64,000 nucleotides of DNA from a virus (Duplodnaviria > Caudoviricetes). Location of the stretch: IMG/VR virus record IMGVR_UViG_3300015608_005401, positions 10,686 to 74,685 of that record; one strand, written 5' to 3'. A program made the position numbers and the translations under genes. The notes below the pieces were generated by a model. It was not told the origin of the DNA and made no database searches. It saw only the letters and a program-made list of their open reading frames with translations. The number at the start of each line of letters is the position of its first letter. The first letter of the stretch is position 1. Shown piece by piece: positions 37,730 through 40,216 of this stretch.

Positions 37730-37828
37730 ATGAGAACAAATCGCACACATAAACATTTTAGTAAATCGAATAAGTGGTTTAGAAACCAGTTCGGTACTGA
37801 AAGTGTATTGCTCTCAAATAAGATGTAA
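37730..37828 (+). CDS. attenuator leader peptide L1 (MRTNRTHKHFSKSNKWFRNQFGTESVLLSNKM)
   Basis: Codons 7-17 are 8/11 His/Lys/Phe/Trp, matching the downstream tRNAs. Confidence 0.8.
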   Translation: MRTNRTHKHFSKSNKWFRNQFGTESVLLSNKM

Positions 37829-37857
37829 CAAATCTATATTTATACAAGACAATATTC

Positions 37858-37896
37858 AAAGTCCGAACTTAAAAAAAGTTCGGACTTTTTTGTTTT
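37858..37896 (+). terminator. attenuator terminator T1
   Basis: AAAGTCCGAACTT-AAAAA-AAGTTCGGACTTT then TTTGTTTT. Confidence 0.9.
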
Positions 37897-37900
37897 ATAT

Positions 37901-37986
37901 GGTGTCGTTAGTGTCAGCGGTGAGTCTTCGGACGAGCATATGGCTCTGTGAAAGCCAAGGGACGGGTTCAAATCCCGTACGACACC
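37901..37986 (+). tRNA. tRNA-His(GTG) with an extra D-loop hairpin
   Basis: G-1:C73, loop CTGTGAA, GTC-TTCG-GAC inside the D-loop. Confidence 0.85.
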
Positions 37987-38044
37987 CCTTGATTTTTTTT
38001 GACTTTTGATTTTAATATATAAAGAAATCAAAAGTCAAAAAAAA

Positions 38045-38686
38045 ATGAAAAAAGAAAAAGTAAGGTATTACTTCTTATATAAGACTACCAATAAAATGAA
38101 TGGTAAATTTTATATAGGAGTACATAGTACAATAAAAATGAATGATGGGTATTTAGGATCCGGTAAAAGACTTAGATACTCGATGAGAAAATATGGAAAG
38201 GAGAATTTTGAAATAGATATATTAGAATTTTTCAATAGTAGAGAACTTATGTTTGAAGCTGAGAGAAACCTTGTTAATACTGATTTAATTAAAAATGAAT
38301 TATGTATGAATTTAAAAGAAGGTGGTATTGGTGGGTGGACAAAAGAACAACAAATAGAGAATGCTAATAGATCTAATATTAAAAAGAAAGAATTGAGAGA
38401 TAATAATCCAGAATGGAGAGGGCTTGAAAAGATAAGAAATTCAGAAAATATGAGAAAATCATATGAGAGAGGAGATAGAGAAAAAAAGCAACCTATGGAT
38501 TGGACTGGTAAAAGACATAAAAGGGAGACTATTCAGAAAATGAAAAAATCCAAAAATGTTGGTAAATTAAACTCTCAATATGGTACAAAGTGGATTAATA
38601 AAGATGGTATTATTAAAAAAATAAAAGAAAATGAACTTGAATATTATCTGAACAATGGATGGATTCAAGGTAGAAAAGGAACCTAA
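38045..38686 (+). CDS. GIY-YIG (Seg-like) homing endonuclease
   Basis: LYKTTNKMNGKFYIGVH..GYLGSG; HKRETIQKM NUMOD3-like; stop codon overlaps tRNA-Phe. Confidence 0.85.
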   Translation: MKKEKVRYYFLYKTTNKMNGKFYIGVHSTIKMNDGYLGSGKRLRYSMRKYGKENFEIDILEFFNSRELMFEAERNLVNTDLIKNELCMNLKEGGIGGWTKEQQIENANRSNIKKKELRDNNPEWRGLEKIRNSENMRKSYERGDREKKQPMDWTGKRHKRETIQKMKKSKNVGKLNSQYGTKWINKDGIIKKIKENELEYYLNNGWIQGRKGT

Positions 38687-38753
38687 GCTAATCAGGTGAA
38701 AGCACTGGACTGAAAATCCAGGGAGCCCGGATCGTTACCGGGAGGTTCCACCA
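38678..38753 (+). tRNA. tRNA-Phe(GAA)
   Basis: GGAACCT/AGGTTCC stem, loop CTGAAAA, encoded CCA. Confidence 0.9.
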
Positions 38754-38762
38754 AAAAAAAAT

Positions 38763-38836
38763 GGTGATTGTAGCTCAATCGGTAGAGCGCAGGTTTGTGG
38801 AGCCGAGGGTCGGGATTTCGAAATTCCTCGTTCACC
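38763..38836 (+). tRNA. tRNA-His(GTG), weak anticodon stem
   Basis: G-1:C73, loop TTGTGGA, mismatches in the anticodon stem. Confidence 0.65.
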
Positions 38837-38843
38837 CAAAAAA

Positions 38844-38913
38844 GAGGGGATAACATAATGGTAGTGTACCGGGCGGAAAACCGGTAGTGTTAGTTCGATT
38901 CTAGCTCCCTTCA
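38844..38913 (+). tRNA. Phe-like tRNA with an 8-nt anticodon loop (GCGGAAAA)
   Basis: GAGGGGA/TCCCTTC stem; D and T arms intact. Confidence 0.55.
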
Positions 38914-38921
38914 CTACAAAT

Positions 38922-39005
38922 GTGGCAGTAGCTGAGACGGTGGCGTAAGCCTGTAGCGCTTGGTTTGAAAAACCAGAGACATCGGTTCGAATCCGATCTG
39001 TCACA
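38922..39005 (+). tRNA. tRNA-Phe(GAA) with an extra D-loop hairpin
   Basis: GTGGCAG/CTGTCAC stem, loop TTGAAAA, GGC-GTAA-GCC in the D-loop. Confidence 0.8.
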
Positions 39006-39011
39006 CAAAAT

Positions 39012-39093
39012 ACAGGTACTCATTGGTGTGACCAGCCGGCTCCAACCCGGTAATTCGTAAGAGTGGCTAAGAGTTCGAGTCTCTTTACCTGTG
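39012..39093 (+). tRNA. tRNA-Trp(CCA) with a long variable arm
   Basis: ACAGGTA/TACCTGT stem, G73, loop CTCCAAC, ATTC-GTAA-GAGT variable hairpin. Confidence 0.7.
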
Positions 39094-39101
39094 CTAAAAA
39101 T

Positions 39102-39172
39102 ACATCTGTGGTGAAATGGTATCATTTTTGTCTCCAAAACAAAAGTTCTTGGTTCGAGCCCAGGCAGGTGTG
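39102..39172 (+). tRNA. tRNA-Trp(CCA)
   Basis: ACATCTG/CAGGTGT stem, G73, loop CTCCAAA. Confidence 0.88.
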
Positions 39173-39226
39173 CTAAAAAGGTATGGAGAGGTTCAACTTT
39201 TTAATATATAAAATAAAAACTTATAT

Positions 39227-39895
39227 ATGAAAATTTTAGATAACCTTGATATATCTGATATTCAGAGAAAACTGAATGAGTCTAAATCATTTAGAGAGTT
39301 TCTATTAAAAATAGGATCTTCATCTAATGGGTCTGGTTCATACAAATCTATTAAGAATCAATTAATTAAATTAGGAGTTATAATTCCTGAGTTTAATTAT
39401 GAGAATAAAAATAAAATTAGTAAAAAAATTGATGATGTTGATGTTTTTATAAAAGGTTCTTTTTATAGTAGACAAAGATTAAAAGAAAGAATTATTAAAA
39501 ATAAACTAATTGATTACAGATGTGAGGAATGTGGAAATGATGGCGATTGGAATGGTAAAAATCTAAGCTTACATCTTGAACACAAAAATGGAGTTAATGA
39601 TGATAATAGATTAGAAAATCTAACATTCTTATGTCCAAATTGTCACTCACAGACCGAAACTTATAGTGGTAAAAATAGGAAGAAAAAAGAAAAAAGAAAG
39701 TGTGAGTGTGGTAGAGAAATATTCAAAACAAGTAAAATGTGTTTAGATTGTAACTCTATAAAAAATAGAAAAGTTGAAAGACCGTCAATTGAAAAACTAA
39801 AAGAAGAAGTTGTTGAGTTTGGATATAAAGCTATTGGTAGAAAGTATGGTGTTAGTGATAACACAATTAGAAAATGGATTAAAATAAAAAAGTAA
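39227..39895 (+). CDS. HNH homing endonuclease
   Basis: CEECG..LHLEHKNGVNDDNRLENLTFLCPNCHSQT; C-terminal HTH YKAIGRKYGVSDNTIRKW. Confidence 0.88.
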   Translation: MKILDNLDISDIQRKLNESKSFREFLLKIGSSSNGSGSYKSIKNQLIKLGVIIPEFNYENKNKISKKIDDVDVFIKGSFYSRQRLKERIIKNKLIDYRCEECGNDGDWNGKNLSLHLEHKNGVNDDNRLENLTFLCPNCHSQTETYSGKNRKKKEKRKCECGREIFKTSKMCLDCNSIKNRKVERPSIEKLKEEVVEFGYKAIGRKYGVSDNTIRKWIKIKK

Positions 39896-39982
39896 AAATT
39901 AGATTAAGAAAATGAAAAGTAAGTTGAAATATAAACGCTAGGCAACGACCAATTGAGAGGGGTCGTTGCCATTAAAAACAAT

Positions 39983-40055
39983 GATTCCGTAGCTCAATTG
40001 GTGGAGCTTCCGGCTTTTAACCGGAAGGATGTGGGTTCAAGTCCCACCGGGATCA
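39983..40055 (+). tRNA. tRNA-Lys(TTT)
   Basis: Loop CTTTTAA, canonical cloverleaf. Confidence 0.92.
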
Positions 40056-40068
40056 CTAAAATAAAAAC

Positions 40069-40140
40069 GATCTTGTAGCTCAATTGGTGGAGCTTCCGAC
40101 TCTTAATCGGAAGGTTGTGGGTTCGAGTCCCCCAGGATCA
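40069..40140 (+). tRNA. tRNA-Lys(CTT)
   Basis: Loop CTCTTAA; T-stem one base short. Confidence 0.85.
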
Positions 40141-40144
40141 CAAA

Positions 40145-40216
40145 GGATTCATGACGTAATTGGTAGCGTCCCAGACTTTTAATCTGGTAGTCCGAGTTCG
40201 AGTCTCGGTGGATCCA
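40145..40216 (+). tRNA. tRNA-Lys(TTT)
   Basis: GGATTCA/TGGATCC stem, loop CTTTTAA. Confidence 0.9.

Follow-up and report, generated by a model that had tools for sequence, protein, structure and literature searches.

Enterobacterial leaders (trpL, hisL, pheL, leuL, thrL, the ilv leaders, and pheM before pheST) share a common design in which a promoter-proximal open reading frame (ORF) carries regulatory codons in segment 1 of the leader RNA, and 1:2, 2:3, and 3:4 pairings lead up to an intrinsic terminator placed before the regulated genes. We found the same design in a stretch of 64,000 nucleotides of viral DNA (IMG/VR record IMGVR_UViG_3300015608_005401, positions 10,686 to 74,685; hereafter the window), where a 32-codon leader ORF and a terminator precede a cluster of His, Phe, Trp, and Lys tRNA genes. 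Its spacing is similar to that of trpL, and like the ilv leaders it appears to sense several amino acids through one leader. The phage unit differs from the enterobacterial leaders in that its regulated genes are tRNA genes, not genes for enzymes or synthetases, so that the product would feed back directly on the sensor. It differs as well in that its regulatory codons are interspersed and not gathered in a pure run, in that the stop codon falls inside the antiterminator loop and not at segment 2, and in that it is phage-borne, with at least seven paralogous, differently tuned copies.

Rfam models of the known leader families (Trp_leader, His_leader, Phe_leader, Leu_leader, and Thr_leader) gave no match at gathering score on positions 37730 to 37896, the only hit there being L20_leader at 24.7 bits (cut-off 58.7); matches to His_leader (26 versus 49) and Phe_leader (25.9 versus 55) elsewhere are at chance level. 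T-box riboswitches likewise choose between terminator and antiterminator by tRNA charging and control genes of the translation supply chain, but they bind uncharged tRNA directly and have no ORF, whereas the phage unit has a conserved one; the Rfam T-box model had no match in positions 36000 to 44000 at E values up to 1. The tRNA clusters of large phages (T4, T5, and huge phages) resemble the present cluster in that such blocks are often invaded by homing endonuclease genes, and we know of no codon-matched leader with an attenuator in any of them. A full-text literature search returned no report of tRNA genes, phage tRNA clusters included, being controlled by leader-peptide attenuation, and tRNA genes are not mentioned in a broad survey of premature terminators. 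In mycobacteria, cysteine-responsive leaderless short ORFs reportedly serve as sensors rich in one amino acid and control protein-coding operons (bioRxiv 10.1101/834739); should the TTAATATATA motif described below be a promoter, the phage leaders would be nearly leaderless, like those short ORFs.

The window has about 30% G+C and comes from a very large uncultured phage; among public records, LR756502.1 (642 kb) and LR745206.1 (635 kb) are nearest to it. It belongs to a contig of 74.7 kb, and the sequence is present in wastewater metagenomes. Bacteroidota is the putative host type, assigned from promoter type alone. We put a probability of roughly 0.8 on the reading that the unit is a ribosome-mediated leader-peptide transcription attenuator through which the His/Phe/Trp/Lys tRNA genes are expressed on demand, a reading in which we infer translation of the leader, ribosome stalling, and read-through. 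The phage would then probably make the tRNAs of this cluster only when ribosomes slow on His, Lys, Phe, and Trp codons. The parts of such a device are present in the appropriate order, with mutually exclusive pairings that covary among relatives and with leader codons that match the tRNAs downstream.

Positions 37641 to 37896 hold, in order, a Bacteroidota-type promoter, the 32-codon ORF, and the terminator, followed 10 nt on by tRNA-His; all of these, like the cluster and the sister units below, are on the + strand. The promoter (37641 to 37672; TTAGG ... TATATTTG), which we take to be of the -33/-7 type of Bacteroidota promoters, has a 32-nt TT[TA]GG-N-TAnnTTTG layout that stands at the start of each of the window's five leader units and matches the window 27 times, compared to 8.5 times in shuffles. 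Five nucleotides upstream of the ATG lies a conserved TTTTAATATATAA motif (37712 to 37724), with 13 matches in the window against 2.6 expected. The leader ORF itself (37730 to 37828) encodes MRTNRTHKHFSKSNKWFRNQFGTESVLLSNKM. Its codons 7 to 17 (37748 to 37780; CAT AAA CAT TTT AGT AAA TCG AAT AAG TGG TTT, or H K H F S K S N K W F) specify His, Lys, Phe, or Trp in 8 of 11 cases, the same count that had been read from the sequence in an earlier note on this DNA, whereas the composition of the window's own proteins would predict about 1.6 per 10. Each of the codons CAT, AAA, AAG, TTT, and TGG in this sensor is decoded by tRNAs of the cluster. The intrinsic terminator (37858 to 37896; -17.0 kcal/mol) consists of a perfect 13-bp stem, 37858 to 37870 paired with 37876 to 37888, followed by TTTTTTGTTTT. 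Given that it ends 10 nt before the first tRNA gene, there is no room for another promoter between them.

The leader RNA can adopt alternative structures. Segment 1, AGTAAATCGAAT (37760 to 37771), and segment 2, AGTTCGGTACT (37788 to 37798), lie where the earlier note had placed them, within a 1:2 hairpin that is longer than it had proposed: both the minimum free energy structure and the centroid structure contain a 19-bp helix, 37756 to 37779 with 37784 to 37802 (hairpin 37756 to 37802), which would serve as an anti-antiterminator. The same note had described a 2:3 pairing of 10 bp with one bulge between segment 2 and the terminator 5' arm, AGTCCGAACT (37860 to 37869). RNAduplex reproduced it (7 bp, one bulge, and 3 bp; -12.8 kcal/mol), and the pairing extends further, through GTATTG at 37805 to 37810 with CAATAT at 37850 to 37855. 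The full antiterminator is formed by a 5' strand at 37788 to 37813 (37788 to 37798 plus 37805 to 37813) and a 3' strand at 37848 to 37869, comprising the CAATAT region (37848 to 37855) and the terminator 5' arm.

Naked leader RNA folds into the 1:2 and 3:4 structures at -41.8 kcal/mol (z = -5.97), with none of 200 shuffled sequences folding as well. The stalled state was modeled by masking a 28-nt ribosome footprint in an RNA that ended short of the terminator 3' arm. Whichever of codons 7 to 16 occupies the A site, both parts of the 5' strand pair with both parts of the 3' strand (-19.1 kcal/mol). When Phe17 is in the A site, the footprint covers the start of segment 2, and the 2:3 helix that remains is shorter (-14.3 kcal/mol). 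No 2:3 helix forms once the ribosome has reached Gly22, nor when it is at the stop codon, where the 1:2 hairpin re-forms. The full RNA has the terminator at every ribosome position.

These structures suggest how the unit would operate. Transcription would start from the promoter at 37641 to 37672, and a ribosome would translate the 32-codon leader. When tRNAs are plentiful, it would pass segment 2 and reach the stop codon at 37826, inside the would-be antiterminator; 1:2 would re-form behind it, 3:4 would fold, and polymerase would halt 10 nt before tRNA-His. If no ribosome were loaded, 1:2 and 3:4 would form and transcription would halt as well. Were the supply of charged His, Lys, Phe, or Trp tRNA to run low, however, the ribosome would stall on codons 7 to 16, occupying segment 1 and freeing 37788 to 37813. 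The freed segment 2 would pair with 37848 to 37869 before the terminator 3' arm exists, and polymerase would continue into the tRNA genes, whose products would relieve the stall in a negative feedback. Codons could become slow through a mismatch in codon usage, through decay of host tRNAs during infection, or through host anticodon nucleases.

Pattern scans of viral and metagenomic contigs yielded 74 distinct leader-plus-terminator sequences related to this unit; a loose pattern scan of viral contigs returned mostly chance matches, and the matches were filtered by ORF, terminator, and tRNA. The promoter pattern is carried by 57 of 68 family members, and 59 of 68 have the TTTTAATATATAA motif within 30 nt of the ATG, ending 5 to 7 nt before it. 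Frame 0 is open for 28 to 39 codons in all 74 members, compared to averages of 2.1 and 6.5 stops in the other two frames over the same span. The ATG always lies 27 nt upstream of the FSK motif, the leader stop codon always falls past segment 2, the Lys and Ser codons vary synonymously, and indels in segment 2 measure 3 or 6 nt. His occupies codon 7, a position that the search pattern left free, in 72 of 74 members. In 64 of 71 members the T-run is followed, at a median distance of 15 nt, by the start of a tRNA gene, and Lys, Phe, His, and Trp account for 308 of the 335 tRNAs (92%) in the runs behind family members.

The proposed switch is conserved as well. All of the first 15 family members fold in the switch manner, and in the larger set 70 of 74 form the antiterminator, with at least seven segment 2-to-arm pairs in the stalled state. 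Terminator stems vary (CCGAACT, CCAAGTT, CCGAATC, TCGAAT, and TCTGAATC), and segment 2 varies in step: across 21 types of terminator arm, cognate segment 2-to-arm duplexes were better than those of all 20000 permutations, and in the first set only 3 of 5040 permutations were as good. Cognate pairing of segment 1 with segment 2 was equaled in 4 of 20000 permutations, although here the effect is small, given how little segment 1 varies. In 15 sequences, 84% of 1:2 cells were paired, compared to 33 to 52% when the strands were slid. The terminator itself has seven pairs altered on both sides, a score that none of 500 shuffles reached.

The window contains five leader units in all, each with the order promoter, TTAATATATA motif, short ORF, terminator, and tRNAs, and seven are present in each of the two related 635- to 642-kb phages. 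Unit B (42095 to 42829) has the leader MKTIKITSSSSSRSSKTSEVRSYS (42162 to 42236), with the stretch SSSSSRSS, a terminator at 42261 to 42289, and one Arg and four Ser tRNA genes. In unit C (55794 to 56439), the leader ..AYYYEGE.. (55860 to 55937) and a terminator at 55960 to 55987 precede tRNAs Glu, Glu, Tyr, and Glu. Unit D (56548 to 57068) combines the leader ..IGIAIIGGGAGA.. (56617 to 56697) and a terminator at 56723 to 56748 with a tRNA at 56761 to 56851, which is of Ile(TAT) type by its position in relatives, followed by Ala and Gly. Unit E (62932 to 63539), whose cluster is cut off by the end of the window, has the leader MTTMNLNMNMNLTVVLNTLCIRR.. (63010 to 63117; NLNMNMNL..), a terminator at 63148 to 63176, and tRNAs Asn, Ile, Asn, and one with the anticodon UCU. 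The earlier note's proposal of a trp-type switch geometry is supported by this comparison, as the ORF, the cognate codons in the 5' strand of 1:2, the 1:2 and 2:3 pairings, and the terminator are all found at the His/Phe/Trp/Lys unit, in the four other units of the window, and in relatives.

In each unit the cognate codons sit in the middle of the leader, including the Arg codons CGC and CGA before tRNA-Arg(ACG). The two relatives have counterparts of the window's five units and two more, one for Pro/Asp (..DQDQPD..) and one for Gln (..QQQQQQQ..); nearly all of their tRNA genes, 50 and 61 in number, belong to these seven units. When leaders were assigned to clusters in every possible way and scored with the proteins of the window as the reference for amino acid composition, the true assignment was the single best of 120 permutations for the window and of 5040 for each of the two relatives, the three genomes being related and so not three independent tests. 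On the 19 units of these genomes, a duplex test gave clear results in three families (His/Phe/Trp/Lys, Arg/Ser, and Asn/Leu) and blurred ones in two (Glu/Tyr and Ile/Gly/Ala), the terminators of the latter two being similar. In two contigs, L087 (~2400 to 2600, - strand) and L129 (~9300 to 9470, - strand), the Glu/Tyr and Ile/Gly/Ala clusters have merged into a single Tyr-Glu-Ile-Gly-Ala cluster, and the one leader that precedes it, ..IEAIGYAYEAG.., is a hybrid of both; in this natural experiment the leader tracks the content of its cluster. Similarly, the Asn/Leu-type leader has a conserved Cys codon, and tRNA-Cys is in that cluster in L020 and L130.

The His/Phe/Trp/Lys unit would accordingly be one of at least seven paralogous attenuators that together gate nearly the whole tRNA set of the phage lineage. 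For this giant, putatively Bacteroidota-infecting lineage, it is likely that a near-complete tRNA repertoire regulates itself through at least seven leaders, each written in the codons of its own tRNA block and allowing that block to be transcribed only if those codons are read slowly.

Could the same RNA switch be operated by something other than a ribosome? Uncharged tRNA might contact codon-like triplets in the manner of a T-box, or a phage protein might bind the RNA, with the ORF incidental. What is observed is the alternative pairing, the ribosome's part being our deduction, and the conserved 5' elements (AAAAGGGAC.. and TTAATATATA) could be protein-binding sites. We nevertheless judge this improbable: an incidental ORF would not explain a frame held open in every member while the other frames accumulate stops, an ATG at a fixed offset, a stop always beyond segment 2, indels in multiples of three, or synonymous variation in Lys and Ser codons. 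Moreover, Rfam has no T-box or other riboswitch match, and leaders carry up to seven kinds of amino acid, which one RNA-tRNA contact would not explain. Another proposal, that the short ORFs are ordinary microprotein genes with terminators of their own, that the tRNAs arise by constitutive leaky read-through, and that the complementarity of segment 2 is not regulatory, seems to us very improbable. It gains something from the ordinary protein genes at ~12497 and ~60261, which end in the same style of terminator, and from the peptides, which share an N-terminal M-[KRT]-T-[IN] and in some cases C-terminal motifs (..GT..VL). It has difficulty with peptide composition that tracks downstream tRNA content in every genome and with a segment 2 that covaries with the terminator arm; the conserved GTATTG is already accounted for by its pairing with CAATAT, and a terminator 4 to 25 nt before a tRNA cluster without another promoter would silence that cluster.

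The attenuator might also work as described and yet sense amino acid starvation or host translation capacity, for example to time tRNA synthesis to a stage of infection. A stalled ribosome cannot distinguish a missing amino acid from a missing tRNA, and the fold predicted in the absence of a ribosome terminates, so that the unit would also report whether translation is running. Extra tRNA, however, does not cure amino acid starvation, and the one-to-one sorting of leaders and tRNA blocks, down to the Arg codons of unit B, fits feedback on tRNAs better; we therefore regard this explanation as decidedly unlikely.

Several observations weigh against demand-driven attenuation by leader translation itself. 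The sensor also includes Ser and Asn codons, which the cluster does not decode. Equilibrium folds of the complete RNA keep the terminator at every ribosome position; given that the terminator is the more stable state throughout, the switch must be kinetic and decided during transcription. In the Escherichia coli trp leader (trpL), the terminator is likewise favored at equilibrium and the choice is kinetic. The search pattern fixed F-S-K..K-W-F, which makes the conservation of those six codons partly circular. On a MAFFT alignment, column-wise covariation was not significant for 1:2 or 2:3 in shuffle tests, and RNAalifold returned no more than the core of the terminator and, within segment 1, a small invariant hairpin. 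Since register shifts of 3 to 6 nt in segment 2 spoil the alignment columns and weaken such tests, we replaced them with the register-free comparisons of cognate and noncognate duplexes, on which the support for 2:3 rests. Finally, two endonuclease genes with their own TTAATATATA copies separate the distal tRNA genes from the leader, and attenuator control of the tRNAs behind them may be weaker than in relatives.

If the attenuator reading is correct, leader-peptide attenuation would here be seen for the first time acting on tRNA genes, and for the first time in a virus. The reason that phages carry tRNA genes is a long-standing question, to which codon bias, replacement of degraded host tRNAs, and escape from tRNA-cutting defenses have been proposed as answers. 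On this the unit would provide direct evidence, as a sensor that switches tRNA genes on at slowly read codons is an argument that selection has acted on supply on demand. Leader-peptide attenuation would also be extended to noncoding RNA outputs, to viruses, and to a modular form that the hybrid leader before fused clusters suggests can be reprogrammed. Leaders of this kind might be put to use as codon-specific sensors of tRNA availability, and one reporter per leader would tell which tRNA is short, and when.

The regulated cluster comprises ten tRNA genes: two His, two Phe, one Phe-like with an 8-nt anticodon loop, two Trp, two Lys(TTT), and one Lys(CTT). At default settings ARAGORN called Phe, Phe-like, Phe, Trp, and three Lys genes, and at a relaxed threshold it added His at 37911 to 37988, His at 38764 to 38837, and Trp at 39012 to 39094, with which Rfam agrees. 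Both programs thus support the earlier list of two His, three Phe, two Trp, and three Lys genes, except that the Phe gene described there as degenerate is, rather, a tRNA with an 8-nt anticodon loop. The first regulated gene is tRNA-His(GTG) (37901 to 37988), recognized by ARAGORN at the relaxed threshold, by Rfam, and in relatives, with an extra hairpin in its D arm. Next comes a GIY-YIG endonuclease gene (38045 to 38686), whose domain score of 20.5 bits is just below the cut-off of 22.6 and which has blastn matches to annotated homing endonucleases; it is missing from the contiguous clusters of the two large relatives. It is followed by tRNAs Phe, His, Phe-like, Phe, Trp, and Trp (38678 to 39173; ARAGORN and Rfam), by an HNH endonuclease gene (39227 to 39895; 21.9 bits, cut-off 21.4), and by tRNAs Lys(TTT), Lys(CTT), and Lys(TTT) (39983 to 40217; ARAGORN and Rfam). 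Since the whole cluster is contiguous in the two large relatives, we regard both endonuclease genes of the window as insertions.

A further leader was considered and rejected upstream of the Lys tRNAs, where a mini-ORF, MKSKLKYKR (39912 to 39941), is followed by a 10-bp GC-rich hairpin to 39972 with no U-run. Given that the Lys tRNAs directly follow Trp in relatives that lack the HNH gene, 39912 to 39972 probably belongs to the HNH insertion, as its 3' end, and is not an attenuator. After the Lys tRNAs, an ORF at 40298 to 41281 with REase_MTES_1575/DUF559 endonuclease-type domains is a third nuclease gene of the tRNA region.

The TTTTAATATATAA/TTAATATATA motif may be a second, phage-specific promoter or a translation signal. 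Its 13 sites in the window include 37712, 38010, 39199, 40268, 42039, 55674, 57089, and 62993, and it ends 4 to 7 nt upstream of many ATGs. It also occurs in the loop of long hairpins upstream of endonuclease genes, and 19 nt upstream of tRNA-Met (55704), where there is no ORF.

Several tRNAs of the window are unusual. Extra hairpins are present in those at 37901 to 37988, 39012 to 39094, 56187 to 56273, and 56761 to 56851. The loop of the tRNA-His D-arm insert is UUCG in the window and GAAA or GCAA in relatives L017 and L030, and since its sequence varies, the insert is apparently conserved as a structure. In unit E, two odd tRNAs both have long variable arms: the one at 63292 to 63377 carries the Ile anticodon GAU, and the one at 63460 to 63538 (UCU) has a D arm of about 5 nt. 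Unit C includes, after its terminator and before its first tRNA-Glu, 90 nt with tRNA-like ends (56010 to 56100), for which neither ARAGORN nor Rfam called a tRNA.

Among species-representative genomes, the only exact match to the leader pattern was in L231 (NVXK01000008.1, from a metagenome-assembled genome labeled Robiginitomaculum sp.), at 7756 to 7781, on the edge of the retrieved stretch; L231 may be a phage contig binned into that genome. The Phe-like tRNA with an 8-nt anticodon loop (38844 to 38914; ARAGORN anticodon "ggaa") recurs in a distinct phage contig, L018 (~8750 to 8820), and may be a four-base (+1 frameshift) decoder. In the same His/Lys/Trp/Phe cluster of L018, at ~8840 to 8910, ARAGORN called a tRNA with the anticodon TTA, which would decode the stop codon UAA and may be a suppressor tRNA.

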